Positions 1,379-47,870 are shown, counted from the first letter of the stretch. The stretch is DNA of 64,000 bases from Squalus acanthias (GCA_030390025.1 CM059432.1:49106001-49170000), one strand, 5' to 3'. Numbers and translations: made by a program. The notes: generated by a model from the sequence alone, not told the origin.

Positions 1379-3016
1379 ATGAACAGGCTGAGTCTCTTTT
1401 CTCCTGAAAAGAGAAGGCTGAGGGGTGACCTAATAGAGGTCTTTAAAATTATGAAAGGTTTTGATAGAGTGGATACAGAGAGAATGTTTCCACTTGTGGG
1501 GAAGAGCAAAACTAGAAGCCATCAATATAAGATAGTCACCAAGAAATCCAATAGAGAATTCAGAAGAAACTTCTTTACCCAGAGAGTGGTGAGAATGTAG
1601 AACTCGCTACCACAGCGAGTAGTTGAGGTGAATAGTATAGATGCATTTAAGAGGAGGCTAAATAAGCAGATGAGGGAGAAGGGAATTGAGGGTTATGCTG
1701 ATAGAGTTAGATGAGAAAGGATGGTGGGAGGTGCGAGAGGAGCATAAACGCCGACATGGACTGGTTGGGCCAAATGGCCTGCTTCCGTGCCGCATATTCT
1801 ATGCAATTCTTTCTTCCTTTCTATTTCATACTAATTGGAAAACTCCTCAGTGAGATCGCAGAATGTCTGATGTGGGAAACGGGGAGAAAAAGTCATACTG
1901 GTGCAGTCAGGGGTGCTCTTATGAGGTTGGGGATGATGCATGTTGTTAGAGTAGAGCATCTGACTGTGCTATACGTGACTTGCCAGTACTTGGTGCTGAC
2001 ACTGGGTGGCTGAAATGAAAAGGTTCCATTCCCTAGATCTAATATCCCTCAGCTTGATGAGCACAAAATAAAAAGAAAAGAAAAATCCTTGGTACATTAG
2101 CACTGAACTGTTGCCCTGTAACACATCATATTACAGATAGAAAGTTATTATCTGTTGCTTTTTAACTTATTTCCTGTTAATTCACTAGCATATTATTGTT
2201 GGATAATAGACATCTAGGATTGTGTATGATTGTGTAGGATGACAACTGGGCATTTTAGTGATGACATCAAAAACACAAAGATAAAGTTAAGCCTATATCA
2301 GCATCACTTCCATCGCAAGATTAATTTTATGTTTGAAATATATTCCAGCCTCTATTGTATTGCATAAAGGTACAGTTCGAGGTCAGTTTTATTCTGTTTA
2401 CTGCACATTATTTGTTAGCTGGGAGCAGATGTCATGATAGATAGTGACTGATGGCAAGCTCCATCTACTGAATCATATGATTTGAACTGAAGTGTTATTG
2501 TGATTTGAGCTGAAGTAATGCCACATTTTATTTCACTGTTGTTACAGAGGAAGAACGCACCTTGCATACCTTGTATGTATTATAAGGCAACAGCTATTCA
2601 TATGACACTAAACTAAGCTGCAGCTTAAGTGGTCTATCACCAACATAGAGTCATAGGGGGAGAAATTCGGTATTGCCCCGTTTGGGGCACAATTATTGGC
2701 CGGGCGCAAAGTTTAGCACCTGGCGCAAATTATCGCCTCCAACTTCAAACTTGACTTCTATCGCCCCTGCAGGTGATTGGAGCGCTAAATTAGGTGCTAC
2801 ACACCTGTCTTAAGGCGCAAAGGCTGAGGAGCGAGGCGCTAACTTAGAGCGCGGGCGCAGCGCAGGTGATGTCAGTTAGCGATGGAACACAGACACACTG
2901 GCACTGGCCAGTTCTTAAAGGGGAGGGTCGATCTTGCTCTCCAGCCACACCCTGCTCATTGGAGCCTTGAATCTCGACCTGGAGAGACCTGTGATTACAT
3001 TTTCCAGCCAAGGACT

Positions 3017-4780
3017 ATGGAGAGGGTGAGAGAACGAGCTCAGTGCTTCAGCGAGTGGGCCTTGGAGGCTCTGGTTGGCGCGGTGGAGCGCAGAATATCT
3101 ATACTCTTCCTGAGAGTGGCAGGAGGCCTTTGCCGCGTGACTACAGAAGAGTGTGGAGGGAGGTGGCTCAGCACGTCTCCTCCAGGAGCATGGTGCCCAG
3201 GACCCATACTCAATGTCACAAAAAGTTCAACGACCTCACTTGGGTCGTCAGGGTGAGTGGATTTTTTTCAATACCTCTCCATCCCTCCATTTCAACCTCA
3301 CTCTATGGCCAGCGGGTCTTAAAACCCCAATGCCCAACACTCATCCAACACCTATGGCCCTCTCATGAAACACACACACACATTCCACACCTTGCATACA
3401 GTAAGGGCTATTCAACTATGGGAGGCACATCAGGCAAGACCATGGCTGTATATTTACTCAGACGCCGTCCTTTTTCTTACAGGCCAAGCTATCTCATAAC
3501 AGGAGACAGCAGCAATGGACGGGTGGAGGGCCGCCTCAGCTGCAACCCCTCAGCGATCTTGAGGCGTGCATCCACAGGATTGTGGCAAGCCAGGTGATCG
3601 GTCCTGTCGCCCCTGGAGAGGCCGACTCCGTTCGGGACAGCAATGGTAAGGTCATCAGCTTTCTCTCCTCTCTCATTCCACTTGTCGCTCACAACACCTG
3701 CCTTTGACACTTTCAATCCAACTTACTAAATCGCTGCACTCCTTCCTCCCTTACTGCCCCCCTGTCCTCACGCTAAAGCCACTCTTGTACCTCCCTGCTT
3801 TCAGATGGTGATTCACCAGCTGAGGAGGCGGGCCCGCAAGCTGCCAGTGGGAGTGAAGCTGCAGCCGAGGAGGAAGATGAAGCCAGAGCATCAGCGCCAC
3901 CCTCTCCCGAGGAAGCCCATGCCCACACTCGGACCACGTCTTCCCTGGAGGGGAGCAGGGGGGAAGGGTCTGATGAGGGTGAAGCTCCGGGACCCAGCGG
4001 ACTGCATCAACGCGATGTGGCTAGGGAAGCTCGGGGACCTTCTCCCCGGAGGGAGAGTAGGCCAGTGAGTCCTGCTGCACTGGATGCAGAGGAGGAGCGG
4101 CTCATCGCTGAAATGAACACCCAAGTGGTGGACATGCACACTGCGCTCATGGGTGCAGTGGGAAGGGTGCCCGAATGCATTGATGTACTGTCAAGGAGTG
4201 TGGAGCACTTCGCTGTAGCACAGGCGGATGCCACGCTAATGCTTAGTGCTGCAATTCAGTCACTGGCTGTCGTGATCCAATCTCAGACTGCTCTCATGCA
4301 GACTCAGATTGAGGTCACGCAAGCACTGACTGCTGCCATTCTCGCTGGTTCGGACACATTTCCCAGGGGCTCTCACGCGCCGCAGCAGGCCAGCAATCTG
4401 TGCTCCAGCAGATTGCACCGGATGCTGAGGTGCTGCCCCGTGGGAGTGCCAGTGTGTCGGTCGAGCAGGGAGTTGCTGTCCTCTCTCAAGATGACAGCAT
4501 TCCGGCTGCCACCACTGTCACTTCCCCATTGCACTTGCCACCACCTGTAGCCCAGACTGCTACCGCCCATGCAGAGTTGGTGCAGTCTGCAGCCAGGCCC
4601 TCTAGGCCCAGAGCTGGTCGAGGCCGTCCTTCAAGGGCATCTGTAGTCTCAGGTTCTGACAATCAGCAGCCTTCCACCAGCCTTGCTGCAGCCACTGGGG
4701 CCCCACTACGGAGGAGCAGTAGGGTGGGAAGGGGTAAAGTGCGCAAGGGAAGGAGATCACCCTCGAAGGGCAAAAAGTAG
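3017..4780 (+). pseudogene. Harbinger Myb/SANT-like DNA-binding gene, 3 exons (3017-3252, 3483-3645, 3805-4780), frameshifted
   Basis: MERVRERAQCFSEWALEALVGAV..VWREVAQHVSSRS..RTHTQCHKKFNDL; exon 2 AKLSHNRR..TGGG. GT-AG sites (AGG|GTGAGT, TTACAG|, ATG|GTAAG, TTTCAG|) are conserved in copy B. Confidence 0.8.
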
Positions 4781-28101: not shown

Positions 28102-28138
28102 AGTTAACGTTTCAGGTCGAAGACCTTTCGTCAGAACT
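28102..28138 (-). ncRNA. Minimal hammerhead ribozyme motif (intact core)
   Basis: Minus strand AGTT-CTGACGA-A-AGGTC-TTC-GACCT-GAAA-CG-TT-AACT. Confidence 0.85.
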
Positions 28139-28228
28139 GGAAAAAAGCAGGAAATGGAACAGATTTTAAAGCAATGGAATAGATTTTAAATCTTGCTTTA
28201 AAATCTATTCCATTTCCTGCTTTTTTCC

Positions 28229-28265
28229 AGTTCTGACGAAAGGTCTTCGACCTGAAACATTAACT
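28229..28265 (+). ncRNA. Minimal hammerhead ribozyme motif with a CpG-type mutation in stem III
   Basis: AGTT-CTGACGA-A-AGGTC-TTC-GACCT-GAAA-CA-TT-AACT. Confidence 0.75.
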
Positions 28266-28436
28266 CTGTTTCTCTCTCCACAGATGCTGCCTGGCCTGCT
28301 GAGTTTTTCCAGCGTTTTCTGTTGTTATTTCGGATTTCCAGCATCCGCAGTATTTTGCTATTTTAAAAGATTCCCTGGTGGTTAAGCTTAATTTTCAACT
28401 TTTTAATGTTAATAGAGAGCCACTTGTGCTTTATAG

Positions 28437-28567
28437 GTTCTGACGAAAGGTTATTGACCTGAAACGTTAACTCTGTTTCTCTCTCCGCAGATGCTGCCTG
28501 ACCGGCTGAGTATTTCCAGCATTTTCTGTTTTTAGTTCAGATTTCCAGCATCCGCAGTATTTTGCTT
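28437..28567 (+). mobile_element. Solo Penelope pLTR fragment with hammerhead motif (28437-28471)
   Basis: GTT-CTGACGA-A-AGGTT-ATT-GACCT-GAAA-CG-TT-AAC; imperfect TSD TTGTGCTTTATAGG / TTGTGCTAAATAGG. Confidence 0.85.
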
Positions 28568-39610: not shown

Positions 39611-40843
39611 GATTATCACTGTTTGCAGCACCTCTATGCTGTCGAACACTGACAGCACAAATGTTAAAATAAATTTGGACATGGTCCCTTTAAGGAAACC
39701 GGCTGATGACACGTCATCAAATGACATCACCAGACCCGCTTCCTCTAATTGGCCGGGAAATGCGCTGGGTGGGCTTCACAAGCCCAATCAAGGTAAATTC
39801 ATTTCACAAGGCGGGCTGGAGCCAGCTGTGGGGTCAGGACCCGCCACCGACATCACCCGCCACGGACCCACCAAGGTTAGCAAAATCGCGGCCAATAAGT
39901 TCAAAGCATGAACATTGACCACTCTCTACAACAGAGTAGAGGTGTTATTTTCATTCTCTTCACTTGCCAGAACTGAAAGCTGGAAGGGATGTATGATGGC
40001 ATTAACTCGTCTCAAAAAATAGAGTTGGATTAGTGTCTGGTTAACAATTGAACTGAAGGCCATAAGGAGTACTACAAAAAAGAATAATCATGAACCCTAT
40101 GGAACACTATGGCCACAATTTTGCTAACCTCGGCAGGAGGGAACAGAGAGATACTTTGCAAAATCTTTCCTTGTGATTGACTAAATTGGGTACAGTAAAT
40201 GTCAGGACAAATTGTGCAAGGTCTATGGAAGTAGTGAGCTCGATGGGCCAAACTGCATTTTCTTGTTAGATTCTTATGCCCTTATTAAATTTATTCCAAG
40301 GCCTTAAAACCTTTTAAGTGGGACTGTATTACACTTGTCTCCTTGGTTCTAAATATTAACCACAAAAACTATGGGGAATAGAGGAAAAGCTGGTAAACTC
40401 AGTTATTTCTACAGGTTCATATTAAAGCCTGAAAAATGAATTGTTCAAAAGCCTAATCCCAGCACTACAGATTTGATCAGTAAATCCATTGGGGGAAAAA
40501 TTGGGTGTCGCCCATTTTGAGGCGCTAATATCCCCAGGCGCAAATTTTAATGCCCGCTGCAAATTATCGCCGGCGACCGCGAAATTCGTTTCCAGCGCCC
40601 CTGGAAGTGATTGGAGCGCTAAATCAAGCGCTACACACCTCTCTTAGGGCACTAACATCGGGGAACGGGACGCTCCCTCAGAGCGCTACTGAAGCTCAGG
40701 CGATGTCAATTACTTTGTACTCAGACAGACTGGCACCATCCAGTTCTTAAAGGGGAGAGTCCATCATGCTGCACAGCCACAACCTGCTCACTGCAGCGTT
40801 TGACCTGGGCCTGCAAGGAGGTAAAAATCTTCAGCAAAGATTT

Positions 40844-42671
40844 ATGATGGATACTCAGAGGCCAAGGGAGAGAGCTCGCTGGTTTAGCAACCAGGCATTG
40901 GTGGCTCTGGTTGGCGCTGTGGAACGCCGACAGGTAGTGCTATTTCCAGACACTGGCAGGAGGCCATTGCCCCGAGAGTTTACAAGGGTGTGGAGGGAGG
41001 TTTCCCAGTACATTTCATCCAGGAGCCTGGTCCAAAGGACTTACACGCAGTGCCGCAAGAAGTTCAATGACCTCACTCGAGTGGTCAGGGTGAGTACATG
41101 CTTGAAAAACCTTTACATCCCACCATCTCAACCTCACTCTGTGCACAGATGGTGTAAATTGGCAAATCCCCAACACTCACCCAACAACTATGCCCATCTA
41201 ATAAAAGTCACATGCACATCCCACACCTTGCAGACATCAACGGCTATTCAACTATGGTAGGCACATTTGCCAAACACATGGCTGCACACTCACTTAGACG
41301 CTGTCTTTTTTCTTGCAGGCCAAGCTTTCACATAACCGGAGGGAGCAACAATGCACAGGAGAAGGACAGGTGGAGCTGTACCCCCTCACACAACTGGAGG
41401 AGCGAGTCCACAGACTTATTGCCAGTCGTGTCGTCGGCTCTGTGGCTGTTGGGAGAGGTCGACCCCCTTGGGGACAGCAACGGTATGTTCATCAGCTTTA
41501 TCTCCTCTCGCATACCACTTCCCCCTCACAACACCAGCCTTTTACACTTTCCATCTAACTATACTGTCTCCATTCCAACTCTTGTACCTTCCTGCTTTCA
41601 GATAGTGAGCCATCAGCTGACCAGCCTGTCCCTCAGCCTTCCAGTGGCAGCGACGCGGGAGAAGAGGAGGAAGACGAAGCTCACGCCTCACCGCCTGCGT
41701 CTCCCGAGGGCGAGACATCCGATACTGGGGCCACGCGTTCACTGGAGGGGAGCAGGGGGTTTGGATCTGACCATGGGTGAAGCTCCGGGACCCAGCGGGC
41801 TGCAGTAACACCATGGGGGAAGGGAGGCTCAGGGGCCATCTCCCCGGAGGGTGAGTGCGTGCACGAGTTCTGCTGCACAGGACTCAGATGAGGACCTCGA
41901 TATAGCGGCCATGAATACTCAGGCTATGACCATGCCTATGGAGCTCATCGGTGCAATGACAAGGGTGCCCGACAGCATGGATGCACTGGCTAGGAGCGTG
42001 GAGGAATCCACCGCCAGCACAGCTGTCATCTGTGCGCAAACCCTTGAACCCATCCTTGCCTCGATGCAGAGGATGGTTGACTTGCAGAGAGACCGTGGGG
42101 ACCCAGATCCCATGCCACGTGTAATGTGTGAGGTGCCAGCATCTATTGCAGAACAGGCTGAGGCAACGCAACGGCTTAGTGCTGCAATCAAGTCAATGGT
42201 TGCTGCCATCCAGTCTCGGACTGCTCTCATGCAGTCTCAGCTTGATGTCACGCAAGCCCTGACTGCTGACATCATCGCTGGGTCACCCACTGTCCACCGG
42301 GGATTTCATGGTGCCGCAGCAGGCCAGCAATCTGTGCTCGAGCAGATTGCTCCGGATGCTGAGGTTCTGTCCCGGGGGAGTGGCAGTGTGTTGGTCGAGC
42401 AGGAAGGTGCTGTCCTCTCTCAGGATGACAGCATTCCTGCTCCGCCATTGCACTTGCCGCCCATGCAGAGTTGATGCAGTCTGCAGCCGGGCCCTTCAGG
42501 CCCAGAGCTGGTCGAGGGCGTCCTTCAAGGCCATCTGCAGTCTCTGGATCCAACACTCAGCAGCCTTCCACCAGCTTTGCTGCAGCCACTGGGGCCACAT
42601 TACGGAGGAGCAGTGGGGTGGGAAGGGGGGAAGTGTGCAGGGGATGGAGATCATCCTCGAAGGGCGAATAA
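40844..42671 (+). pseudogene. Harbinger Myb/SANT-like gene, 3 exons (40844-41089, 41319-41482, 41602-42671), disrupted
   Basis: RERARWFSNQALVALVGAVERR..VWREVSQYISSRS..RTYTQCRKKFNDLTRVVR; splice sites at positions homologous to copy A. Confidence 0.8.
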
Positions 42672-42980: not shown

Positions 42981-44084
42981 TCAGAAGTGGCGTCTTATCA
43001 GGCGTTCACGAACAGCCCTTGCACAGGTAACATTGAGCGCCTCCCTCCCACGTTGTTGCTGCTCCTCCTCCTCCTGAGGTGGTGCACCAATCCCTGGTGG
43101 CAATGACTGGTTCCTCATAATTGCAAGGTCGTGAAGCATGCAGCACACAACAATGAAAACCGAAACTCGATCAGGGGAGTACTGCAGGGCTCCTCCAGAG
43201 TGGTCAAGACACCGGAACCGTTGCTTCAACACGTCGATCGTCTGCTCAATGAGGTTCCTGGTGGCACTATGGCTCTCACTGTATGCGAGCTCAGCAGGAA
43301 TGTTGGGGTTATGGAGCAGTGTCATCAGTCAGGTGCAGAGTGGATAACCCTTGTCCCCGAGGAGCCAGCCACGAGGTTGACGCGGTGATTGGAACAGGTC
43401 TGGGGCACCAGTCTGGCGCAGAATGAAAGCATCGTGGCTGCTGCCAGGATAGCGGGCATTGACAGCGAGGATGCGCTGTCTGTGGTCGCAAACCAACTGG
43501 ACGTTGAGAGAATGGAAGCCTTTGCGGTTGCGGAACACCTCTGCATTTTCATGAGGAGCCAGCAATGCCACATGCGTGCAGTCAATGGCGCCCTGAACCA
43601 TGGGGAAGCCCGCTATACTAATGAAGCCACATGCGTGTTCAGGCTGTTTGTCTTGGGTCATGGGGAAAGATATGTACTCCCTTCTCCTTTTGTAGAGAGC
43701 ATTTGTGACCTCCCAAATGCAACAATGGACTGCGAATTGGGAGATATTCACAATATCCCCAGTTGAAGCTTGGAAGGAGCTGCTGGCATAGAAATTGAGA
43801 GCCACCGTCACCTTCACTGCCACCGACAGAGACTTCCTGGTCCTGAGCTGAGGCTGGGGCTCTGGTTGCAGGTGGTGGCAGAGCTCTGTGACCACCTACT
43901 TGCTGAAGTGGAGCCTTCTGAAACACTGCTCCTCTGACAGATGAATGTAGGAGAATTGCACCCGGAATACCATGGGAGGGTAAGGTCTCCTCCCTCTGGC
44001 CACGTTTGCAACTCTTTCTCTGCGCCTCTGCTGCCTCTGAAGGTGAAGCTGGAGGACGACGCCCCGTGTTAGTACAGCCCCCAT
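42981..44084 (-). pseudogene. Harbinger transposase with two in-frame stops
   Basis: ORFs 43896-44084, 43329-43895 and 42981-43325 share one frame; GAIDCTHV, HDAFI, GDKGY, IEQTI. Confidence 0.9.
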
Positions 44085-45278
44085 TTAATCTTCTAAATGT
44101 GGTAGTAATAAAGCTGACAGAAATGGGAATCTGAAAAGTGTTGCCGAGGAACAAAACTCCTTGTAGGACAGCGTTAAATGTCTCCAGACGCCTATCGCCC
44201 TCTCAACCTGCGTATGCAAAATATTTTGCCGACAGGAAAAAGCAGGAAGCGCACAACTTTAAATAGCCCTCCCCCAGCTCCCAGCCGACTGCAAAATGTC
44301 CCCCTCTACCTATCGTTCCTAGCGGCAGGTGCTAAGGCAGGGGGCAAGAATCAAGTTCCGGTCCAGGGCACTACCGGGGGCGTTGCGCGCTTCGATGACA
44401 TCATGATCTCCGGGCGCAGGAGATCGTGGCGGTAGTGTTTAGCGCCACCGCAAAGCACCAGGTCAATTTCGCGGGCGGCGCTAAAATCACCACTCTCCGG
44501 CGGTAAGTCGTTTGCGCCCCCTGGAGGTGCTAACGGGAGGCACTAACCAACCAAATTTTCCCCCCTTTGTTTCTGAGAGAATTGCTTTATCTGTTCATCA
44601 GTTTGTAGTAAACCCTATAGATAAGTGGACATAGCGTGCTTTTATTCATTTCTTTTTTCACAGCATTACGAATTCCTAGGTTAGACAGAGAAAATGGCAG
44701 CAGCAAGAGCCCCAAACTGTCCTGAGCAATCGACCTACTTCACCATAACTTCTGTACCATTTAAATTTGACCTACTCTGGATTGCAGAGCAGAGATGGTT
44801 ACAGCTCATTTCAGATAGAGCAATCTACACAAGTTTCAGGAAGCAAATATTTTATTCTCTCCCTGGTCTAGACTTAAACCCAGGACCGTAATTGGCAACT
44901 AGAGTGTGGCAGAACATATTAATAAACAGGGAGGGAGGGTTGGTTGCTCATTAGTAACAGTCATGAAGATTACTTTGAAGTAATCATTTGGTCTCAAATT
45001 CTTTACATGATCAGAAAAAATGTTGAAATTAGGATATAAGAGAATTTCTTTTGCACAGCAATAATGATATTCATAACATTTAATAGGAACATAGGCATGA
45101 ACAGGGCCACAAGAGATCATTTCGGTCCATCTGGCTGGCCCCAGATTTCAAAAACAGAATTGAAATCCTTTGCCATATTAACTTCTGAAATATCTTATTC
45201 TAGTTCTGATCTGATGCACAATCCTTGAAAGGTTATATCCATATAATCTGTCTATACTACATTACACATATATTTCTG

Positions 45279-45436
45279 AGAAGTGGCACAACACCAGGTT
45301 ATAGTCCAACAGATTTATTTAATTTTACAAGCTTTCGGAGCTGTCGCTCCTTCGTCAGGTAAGTTAGCAATGAGAGAATCTCCCAGAATTCACAATTTAA
45401 ACCCAGACAAAATCTATTCACATTATTCGCTACAAC
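45279..45436 (-). mobile_element. Penelope pLTR family 2, inverted left arm, with hammerhead motif at 45325-45362
   Basis: Reverse complement of about 47614-47771 with about 2 mismatches by eye. Confidence 0.88.
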
Positions 45437-45486
45437 TTCCCAGGTGTTTTTTTTTTTTTTTAAAAGGCTAACACAAGAACACAAAG

Positions 45487-47442
45487 GTGACTCAACCGTG
45501 GATAACAGGGGAAATTAGAGACAGCATAAAATCCAAAGATAGGGCGTATAAAATAGCCAAAAAAAGCGCCAGAGCGGAAGATTGGGAACAGTTTAAGATA
45601 GAGCAAAGGAGGACAAAGGGCTTAATCAAGAGGGGCAAAATAGCTTACGAAAGCAAGCTGGCGGAAAATATAAAAACTAACTCCAAAAGCTTTTATAAGT
45701 ATATCAAGAGGAAAAGACTGGTGAAAACCAAAGTTGGCCCATTGCAGTCAGATACGGGGGAATATATAACGGGAAATAAAGAAATGGCAGACCAACAAAA
45801 TGCATACTTTGGGTCAGTCTTTACGAAGGAAGACACAAAAAACCTCCCTGGGATATCGGGAAAAATTGGGACATTTGCAAAGGAGGAACTGACGCAAGTC
45901 AATATCTCTAAGGATATGGTGTTAAGGAAGCTAAAGGGATTGAAGGCGGACAAATCCCCAGGGCCTGATAACATGCATCCTAGGGTGCTGAAGGAGGTGG
46001 CCCTAGAGATAGCGGATGCACTAAGTATGATTTTTCAGAATTCATTAGACTCGGGAACAGTGCCCATGGATTGGAGGGTAGCTAACGTTACCCCACTATT
46101 CAAAAAGGGGAGTAGGGAAAAAGCAGGTAATTACAGACCTGTAAGCCTTACATCAGTTGTGGGCAAAATGCTGGAGTCCATCATTAAGGATGAAATAGCG
46201 GAGCACTTAGCAAATGGGGACAGGATAGGACAGAGTCAACATGGATTTACAAAGGGTAAATCGTGCTTGACTAATCTATTGGAATTTTTTGAGGGAGTAA
46301 CTGGTAAAATAGATGGGGGAGAGCCAGTAGATGTGGTGTACCTGGACTTCCAAAAGGCCTTCGATAAGGTCCCACATAAAAGATTAGCAGGGAAAATTGA
46401 AGCTCATGGGATAAAGGGGAAAGTATTGACGTGGATAGAGAACTGGCTGTCAGATAGAAAACAGAGAGTTGGAATAAACGGCTCATTTTCTGAATGGCAG
46501 GCAGTAACAAGTGGGGTACCACAGGGATCTGTCCTGGGTCCCCAGCTGTTCACAATTTACATTAATGACCTGGATCAGGGAGTCGGATGCAGCATTTCCA
46601 AATTTGCAGACGACACTAAACTAGGAGGGGGGGTGGGCTCAGAGGAGGAGACCAGGAAGCTCCAGAGCGATTTGGACAGACTGGGTGATTGGGCGGATAA
46701 ATGGCAGATGCACTATAATGTGGACAAGTGCGAAGTTATCCACCTTGGGTGCAGGAACGGGAGGGCAAATTATTATTTAAATGGCAATAAATTGGGAGAG
46801 GGGGAAGTACAGAGAGACCTGGGTGTTCTTGTACACCAGTCACTGAAGGCGAGCATGCAGGTGCAACAGGCGATCAAGAAGGCAAACGGTATGCTGGCCT
46901 TCATAGCAAAAGGGTTGGAATACAGGAACAGGGATACCTTGCTGCAGCTGTACAGGGCACTGGTGAGACCACACCTCGAGTACTGTGTACAGTTTTGGTC
47001 GCCTCATCTGAGGAAAGATGTTCTTGCCATGGAGGGGGTGCAGCGGCGATTCACCAGGCTGATACCAGGAATGGCGGGATTGACCTATGAGGAGAGACTA
47101 TGTAGTTTAGGTATGTACACACTGGAGTTTAGAAGATTGAGAGGGGACCTCATAGAAGTGTATAAAATTCTGACAGGTCTAGACAGACTAGATGCAGAAG
47201 GGATGTTTCCCTTGGCGGGTGAGAACAGAACTAGAGGACATAATTTAAGGATAAGGGCTAAACCATTTAGGACAGAAATGAGGGGGAATTTCTTCACTCA
47301 GAGGGTGGTGAACCTGTGGAACTCATTGCCACAGAGGGCAGTGTACGCCAGCTCATTAAATATATTTAAGAGGGAATTAGATATATTTCTACAGGCAAAA
47401 GGGGTTAAGGGTTACGGAGAGAAGGCGGGGACGGGATACTGA
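45487..47442 (+). CDS. CR1 ORF2 reverse transcriptase, 5'-truncated (no APE), uninterrupted 651 codons
   Basis: [51 protein letters not shown]; 3' UTR and (CTATGTAT)n tail to about 47541. No native start; the ORF begins at a GTG. Confidence 0.9.
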   Translation: MTQPWITGEIRDSIKSKDRAYKIAKKSARAEDWEQFKIEQRRTKGLIKRGKIAYESKLAENIKTNSKSFYKYIKRKRLVKTKVGPLQSDTGEYITGNKEMADQQNAYFGSVFTKEDTKNLPGISGKIGTFAKEELTQVNISKDMVLRKLKGLKADKSPGPDNMHPRVLKEVALEIADALSMIFQNSLDSGTVPMDWRVANVTPLFKKGSREKAGNYRPVSLTSVVGKMLESIIKDEIAEHLANGDRIGQSQHGFTKGKSCLTNLLEFFEGVTGKIDGGEPVDVVYLDFQKAFDKVPHKRLAGKIEAHGIKGKVLTWIENWLSDRKQRVGINGSFSEWQAVTSGVPQGSVLGPQLFTIYINDLDQGVGCSISKFADDTKLGGGVGSEEETRKLQSDLDRLGDWADKWQMHYNVDKCEVIHLGCRNGRANYYLNGNKLGEGEVQRDLGVLVHQSLKASMQVQQAIKKANGMLAFIAKGLEYRNRDTLLQLYRALVRPHLEYCVQFWSPHLRKDVLAMEGVQRRFTRLIPGMAGLTYEERLCSLGMYTLEFRRLRGDLIEVYKILTGLDRLDAEGMFPLAGENRTRGHNLRIRAKPFRTEMRGNFFTQRVVNLWNSLPQRAVYASSLNIFKRELDIFLQAKGVKGYGEKAGTGY

Positions 47443-47541
47443 ATTGGAGGATCAGCCATGATCTCATTAAATGGCGGAGCAGGCTCGAAGGGCCGGATGG
47501 CCTACTCCTGCTCCTATCTTCTATGTATCTATGTATCTATG

Positions 47542-47815
47542 ATATGCAGCCAGCAGGTGGTTTGACACGTTGGACCTCCTGGGACACATCTCATTGTCTT
47601 GGCTGTGCTCTTTGTTGTAGCAAATAATGTGAATAGATTTTGTCTGGGTTTAAATTGTGAATTCTGGGAGATTCTCTCATTGCTAACTTACCTGACGAAG
47701 GAGCGACAGCTCCGAAAGCTTGTAAAATTAAATAAATCTGTTGGACTATAACCTGGTGTTGTGCGACTTCTCATTTTTGTCCACCCCAGTCCAACGCCGG
47801 CATCTCCACATCATG
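47542..47815 (+). mobile_element. Penelope pLTR family 2, right arm with ~40-bp tail
   Basis: Ends AATAAATCTGTTGGACTATAACCTGGTGTTGTG..CCCCAGTCCAACGCCGGCATCTCCACATCATG, followed by the TSD. Confidence 0.85.
47688..47725 (+). ncRNA. Minimal hammerhead ribozyme motif, family 2
   Basis: TTAC-CTGACGA-A-GGAGC-GACA-GCTCC-GAAA-GC-TT-GTAA. Confidence 0.85.
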
Positions 47816-47870
47816 ACATATATTTCTGCCAGTGCACAGAAAGAATTAAAGAAAAACTTGCATTTATATA

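Follow-up and report, generated by a model that had tools for sequence, protein, structure and literature searches.

The window analysed here is a stretch of 64,000 nucleotides from Squalus acanthias (GCA_030390025.1 CM059432.1:49106001-49170000), in which positions 45266 to 47828 hold a composite of two retroelements, a Penelope-like element (PLE) with inverted arms and, inside its forward arm, a CR1 element. The features of the locus are as follows.

45266..45278, no strand: left copy of the 13-bp target-site duplication (TSD) that flanks the PLE insertion; the last 2 nt can equally be read as arm end
45279..45436, minus strand: inverted PLE arm, 5'-truncated and tail-less, corresponding to reference positions 137-296
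45325..45362, minus strand: minimal hammerhead-like motif of the inverted arm, by motif reading; core 45333-45358, predicted cut after 45329
45437..45485, plus strand: forward PLE arm, 5' portion, including a T15 tract at 45447-45461; the final 3 nt (AAA) are common with CR1
45483..47541, plus strand: young 5'-truncated CR1, corresponding to reference 2321-4379 of about 4380, which displaces 7 nt of the PLE
47541..47773, plus strand: second part of the forward PLE arm, complementary to the inverted arm over 47614-47773; G47541 is common with the CR1 tail
47688..47725, plus strand: minimal hammerhead-like motif of the forward arm, by motif reading; core 47692-47717, predicted cut after 47721
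47774..47815, plus strand: PLE 'tail' of 42 nt, found only at the right end of the insertion
47816..47828, no strand: right copy of the 13-bp TSD; its first 2 nt also match the PLE sequence that follows the tail

The 13-bp duplication ACATATATTTCTG, with copies at 45266-45278 and 47816-47828, encloses the whole composite exactly where an earlier note on this DNA had placed it, and the near-perfect inverted arms of about 160 bp which that note described are likewise real (45277-45436 and 47614-47773; 160 nt, 99% complementary, 2 mismatches). In other PLE copies, 7 nt separate the sequence of 45437-45485 from that at 47541, and the forward arm is therefore 45437-47815, split by the CR1. Identical 8 nt precede the 47541 point in 78 of 84 distinct PLE copies taken from the first 100 matches listed. 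The CR1 thus interrupts the forward arm in register, with 7 PLE nt missing and with microhomology of 3 nt on its 5' side and 1 nt on its 3' side. This observation redraws part of the earlier anatomy. The T15 tract and the reverse transcriptase (RT) frame do both exist between the arms, but the T15 and its neighbours are PLE sequence (45437-45485); the right arm, given before as 47614-47771, is complementary as described, but the forward arm really consists of 45437-45485 plus 47541-47815; and the suggestion that CR1 had landed in a Penelope spacer came close, except that the CR1 cuts the forward arm itself, at a point 49 nt from the inversion joint of the PLE arms.

Our genome searches, by exact match and by DNA similarity, cover the 3.71-Gb assembly. 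The left flank of the insertion is single-copy in it, and no second-haplotype contig for this flank was found there. Contigs from two samples, X2 and X5, extend from the left flank to 45306, that is 28 nt into the arm against a threshold of 31 nt, which only hints that both samples carry the PLE end at this site. Compared with the assembly, contigs of both samples also have an additional G after position 44928. X11 and X14 gave no coverage of the left flank. No contig spanning the PLE/CR1 junction on the 5' side was found in X2 (whole run), X5 (about 55 in 100 of it read), X8, or X12, a gap that carries no weight as to which allele these samples have. Just left of the composite, Myb/SANT and DDE_Tnp_4 matches face each other (40751-41257 on the plus strand and 43332-43895 on the minus strand), a pair which we take to be a likely Harbinger-type transposon. 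No host gene was found in the window; among the 20 of 42 frames scanned, the other long frames gave transposon domains or nothing.

The PLE partner is abundant, as a 20-mer of its arm has 5,078 exact matches in the assembly. Among the first 100 matches listed, neighbouring PLE copies were paired head-to-head in 21 cases, tail-to-tail in 1, and directly in 2; a TSD of 12-14 bp flanks 14 of 18 inverted pairs (L095-L113, with the tail-to-tail L098 excluded). This PLE family normally produces arms in head-to-head order within a duplication of 12-14 bp, and the insertion in the window has the inverted pLTR arrangement, the tail at one end, and a family-typical 13-bp TSD. With these inverted terminal repeats, the tail, and the minimal hammerhead, the family assignment as a PLE holds. 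Both ends of the insertion share 2 nt with the target. The host PLE is 99.3% identical to its nearest copies and belongs to the youngest class. A full-length relative (L094) carries a frame of 919 aa flanked by two terminal repeats (PF00078, E 2.3e-08), in which a GIY-YIG-like motif, VVY..YIG..R..E, is visible by eye; the frame gave no Pfam GIY-YIG match and no PDB match. The composite itself is without any PLE ORF, and the clade name Penelope/Poseidon is used for this PLE by resemblance only. Apparent breakpoint hot spots of the PLE at 47541 and 47577 were rejected as an effect of rare-word seeding, with 78 of the 84 listed copies being intact at 47541.

The sections of PMC8557442 and PMC3846280 available to us describe truncated, inverted copies that bear the tail at one end as normal for PLEs, and the tail has been attributed in part of PMC11167929 to two adjacent priming sites. 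As far as these excerpts go, the insertion in the window resembles the endonuclease-positive PLEs of the Penelope/Poseidon type in its inverted pLTRs with a tail (PMC8557442, PMC3846280, PMC11167929), whereas its tail is 42 nt against the described 30-40 nt, it lacks a PLE ORF, and its forward arm, unlike those described, is split by CR1. The excerpt of PMC11167929 also reports in vitro priming without homology, in contrast to the 2-nt target microhomology at both ends here.

The motif in the forward arm has, on the plus strand, a 4-bp stem I, the core, one extra nucleotide, a 5-bp stem II, and a palindromic AGCU replacing stem III. Both 47692-47721 and 45329-45358 fit the CUGANGA..GAAA..UH core with the extra nucleotide after A9, the G10.1-C11.1 pair, and the palindromic 15.2-16.2, when compared with the description in the accessible part of PMC4209133. 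The intact hammerhead cores on opposite strands that had been proposed for this locus, with cuts at 45329 and 47721, are therefore borne out by motif reading. Nothing in the window reached an Rfam gathering score, and no relevant Rfam match appeared at E up to 10; hence the label hammerhead rests on the motif reading; folds of the monomer did not yield the hammerhead fold. Part of PMC4209133 describes the minimal PLE hammerhead, in which a palindrome replaces stem III, as thought to act as a dimer and reports no cleavage by single minimal motifs, and a hammerhead motif of Anolis required protein according to part of PMC11167929. A transcript of the whole unit contains one sense motif, and in its predicted fold 156 of the 160 arm nt, motif included, are paired with the other arm. 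The long stem expected earlier for read-through RNA is thus predicted here as well, but because the motif would be sequestered by pairing with the other arm, self-cleavage of such an RNA is unlikely on this model. Elsewhere in the window, four hammerhead-like cores of another family lie at 1280-1304 and 28110-28464, three of which, one minus-strand and two plus-strand, fall inside a stretch of 360 nt.

The CR1 partner is equally a high-copy element, a CR1 25-mer having 7,881 exact matches in the assembly. The stop-free RT frame at 45472-47442 measures 656 aa from stop to stop (PF00078, E 1.3e-31) and comprises the last 652 codons of an ORF2 that is 988 aa long, with the first Met at aa 105. 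The earlier note had singled out this frame; the RT and its assignment to the CR1 family are sound, but the frame is open over the same stretch in 18 of 20 sister CR1 copies and therefore reflects youth rather than anything special. Youth had been claimed for both partners, and indeed the CR1 is 99.7% identical to its sister copies, next to the 99.3% of the PLE; it carries 3 private substitutions, where 17 other copies carry 0-5 each. The CR1 also has, as reported before, its own tail (an octamer tail, 47519-47541) and no target duplication. Full-length sisters are of about 4.38 kb and encode ORF1, of the esterase type, together with an APE-RT frame of 988 aa (in L151: PF13472, PF14529, PF03372, and PF00078). 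The copy in the window starts at reference 2321 of 4380, without the 5' end, ORF1, or endonuclease, and is not an autonomous copy. No in-frame fusion of the CR1 RT with the PLE was found, a stop lying just before 45472, and no similarity was found when the PLE and CR1 proteins were compared. Sequencing runs X11, X12, and X14, labelled as other or unnamed organisms, hold a near-identical CR1 over window 45483-47316 (12-13 differences per about 1.8 kb in X11 and X14), which could be due to close relatives, mixed samples, or transfer.

We surveyed CR1 ends at 50 loci retrieved with a CR1 motif; the anchor was present in 47, and both ends could be inspected in 29. Among these 29, 20 were without a duplication of at least 4 nt, 5 had one of 4-7 nt, and 4 lay in tandem arrays; 5' microhomologies were common among the CR1 copies examined. 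By our reading, eleven other CR1 copies nested in repeats had lost 0 to about 4 nt or had a short duplication; the copy in the window, with 7 nt missing, thus has the greatest loss of the 12 nested cases. According to the part of PMC4245944 seen, CR1 duplications peak at 3-5 bp with short target truncations as a listed class, and short target truncations with 5' microhomology are described for LINEs. The copy in the window agrees with CR1-clade LINEs in its octamer tail, its short or absent duplication, its 5' microhomology, and its 5' truncation, and differs in lying inside a PLE and in a target loss at the high end of the sample.

The reverse arrangement, PLE within CR1, was also observed. 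A sister PLE subfamily inserts repeatedly at one base in the RT region of young CR1, equivalent to window 46448. The junction at this site has 16 exact matches genome-wide against 592 of the subfamily's hammerhead motif, and not all 16 carry that exact motif. The insertions at this site (L164, L165, L224-L240, L249-L254) differ in internal structure and mostly have a 12-bp duplication. Older CR1s carry a PLE at about the matching site (L255, L259). Five insertions (L293, L299, L301, L305, L309) lie at a single target position of an older CR1-like repeat, some in one orientation and some in the other, and L310 and L314 have a second site in common; L349 is also involved in this set of recurrent sites. 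These shared-site insertions were seen among the first 30 matches listed of the sister PLE subfamily.

Three further loci join the 3' end of a young CR1 to a forward PLE arm, at or near the 5' joint of that arm. At L261:2295-2339, 45 nt of a young CR1 3' end lie exactly at the joint under a 12-bp duplication; this locus, fetched for another purpose, is one of 102 PLE joints screened, a non-random sample in which 5 are probably not single insertions and in which the gap is at most 20 nt at 94 joints. At L349:6169-6276, a CR1 3' end of 108 nt coincides exactly with the inversion joint of an insertion from another PLE subfamily, whose arms are 98.4% alike. At L269:3418-4391, a 974-nt CR1 is joined 6 nt from the insertion point in the window; about 12 nt of in-register PLE sequence precede it, and PLE colinearity then breaks. 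In all four cases, the window included, the CR1 has equal polarity, stands tail-first to the forward arm, and lies at most 49 nt from the 5' end of that arm. L269 and L349 were found via queries containing the CR1-tail/PLE junction, so that their position and polarity were selected and the nearness to the joint alone is independent. Only 16 of 84 PLE arms (copies from the first 100 listed) end at most 43 nt from the 47541 point, the next ending at 100 nt, which favours entry at the joint. Against it stands that no CR1 tail joined to a PLE was found among the 47 copies sampled by CR1 motif. Contigs of X2 and X5 show a joint of 47533 to 47577, which may be a further CR1-tail/PLE junction at another locus. 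At L097:5517-5786, two pieces fill the inversion joint: 59 nt of PLE sequence out of register, and foreign repeat DNA of about 210 nt with no source in the surrounding 10 kb.

The explanation we favour, with our confidence evenly divided over it, is a composite of a single locus in which CR1 was copied in by its own enzyme at an unfinished or fragile PLE joint. The PLE reverse transcriptase would have made the two arms by starting synthesis on both strands of the target, at points 13 bp from each other; a nick or break near the arm joint, likely while this was unfinished or under repair, would have left a free 3' end at 47541, on which CR1 cDNA may have been primed from the CR1 3' tail; and the cDNA would have been joined at the nearest AAA through the 3-nt microhomology, at the cost of 7 PLE nt. 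The PLE resumes in register on both sides and the CR1 ends resemble those of its family, as such an entry would have it. Because of L261, L349, and L269, we weight joint-directed entry up and chance nesting down. A parallel is found in the part of PMC1920257 on endonuclease-independent L1 insertion, where LINE cDNA likewise enters at a likely pre-existing break with target loss and no duplication; the element here is a CR1 whose 3' tail is intact, and the break that we propose is the integration joint of another retroelement. Taking the loci together, we lean slightly towards the view that PLE insertions, while their 5' joint is unfinished, recurrently receive copies of CR1 3' ends there, at roughly 1 joint in 100 sampled. 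From the sequence, the timing (integration, a later break in the palindrome loop, or chance) and the copying enzyme are not distinguishable, and the weights which we attach to this and the following readings are judgements, not computed values.

A later, ordinary target-primed reverse transcription of CR1 into the finished PLE, trimming 7 nt, is a possible origin that deserves to be taken seriously, though we hold it in some doubt. It predicts the in-register flanks that are seen, and the LINE truncations, the 5' microhomology, and the 3-5-bp CR1 duplications in the excerpt of PMC4245944 suit it. From the copy numbers, which are lower bounds, and a mean arm of 830 nt, about 9 such nestings would be expected genome-wide, which also speaks against joint entry. 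The relative age of the parts bears on this: the PLE arms have 3 minority differences in their 433 nt, and the CR1 has 3 private differences over 2,059 nt (p 0.07 by Fisher's test, or 0.21 when one CpG site is excluded), so that the evidence leans towards a PLE slightly older than its CR1. On the other hand, the loss of 7 nt tops the 12 nested cases, the host PLE is of the youngest class, and the three other joint cases are left unexplained by chance nesting.

It is unlikely, in our judgement, that template switching produced the locus, with the PLE reverse transcriptase leaving its own RNA at 47541, copying 2 kb of CR1 RNA starting from the tail, and returning 7 nt further on. A LINE RNA is expected, by cis-preference, to carry its own ORF2 protein, which stands against such capture of CR1 RNA. 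The equal polarity and tail-first joining in 4 of 4 cases, as well as the foreign DNA at the L097 joint, suit switching, and a single switch would be enough for L261 and L349, but the locus in the window requires two switches and a near-exact return; moreover, there is no clear PLE stop at 47541, where only 3 of 84 arms among the copies listed end within 1 nt. The proposal in the earlier note that Penelope termini captured a foreign RT RNA gains some support for capture at integration from the three loci, but needs this return within 7 nt. In Adineta vaga, according to the part of PMC3846280 consulted, PLE terminal repeats are known to enclose foreign sequence within a single duplication; what was captured there, with a whole pLTR on either side, is host genes or non-coding DNA, whereas the window holds the 3' portion of a LINE with its own tail inside a pLTR and, unlike them, PLE sequence in register on both sides.

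We regard as very improbable a mobile chimera, in which hammerhead-bounded PLE ends carry the CR1 RT and move as one unit. One duplication does enclose everything, both PLE ends are intact, and the RT frame is open, but a 26-mer of the left junction matches once in 3.71 Gb, and a 21-mer of the right junction has two matches, the other of which (L009) is without CR1 there. A DNA search, with the best 40 candidates scored, found no second locus across the joint and left junction, and the right junction was not found elsewhere among the best 40 candidates in a search that covered same-breakpoint hybrids. Both junctions are thus unique to this locus in the assembly, an outcome that the earlier note had itself named as telling against a mobile chimera, and the mobile ribozyme-bounded chimera suggested earlier is therefore unsupported. 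The three look-alike loci differ in breakpoints and PLE subfamily, and the first Met of the frame lies only at aa 105. Lacking the CR1 5' end, ORF1, and endonuclease as well as a PLE ORF, the composite is likely unable to move itself. A mis-assembly fusing a CR1 and a PLE copy, conceivable as both partners are high-copy repeats with sister copies >99% identical, is the least credible reading of all in view of the in-register flanks, the microhomologies, the family-typical duplication, the private CR1 substitutions, whose number (3) lies in the range of 17 other copies (0-5), and the single-copy left flank.

Both parts and their signatures are already known, as are foreign DNA between PLE ends (PMC3846280) and LINE insertion at breaks (PMC1920257), so far as the available parts of these papers describe them; a paper on PLE-CR1 hybrids or on CR1 ends at PLE joints was not found in the open-access literature, supplements excluded. 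The composite is real, a one-off at this locus, and likely a dead end, one among thousands of copies of each partner, and its value is that of a pointer. Both CR1 and the PLE are young and abundant enough for hybrids to be counted within one assembly. If CR1 tails do cluster at PLE joints, the joint would expose a free 3' end long enough for another reverse transcriptase to use. How the inverted structures of PLEs get closed is described as undefined in the relevant part of PMC8557442; if our reading is true, the integration intermediate of one retroelement primes the RNA of another, and CR1-PLE hybrids would be fossils of that undefined step in which the two PLE arms are joined.
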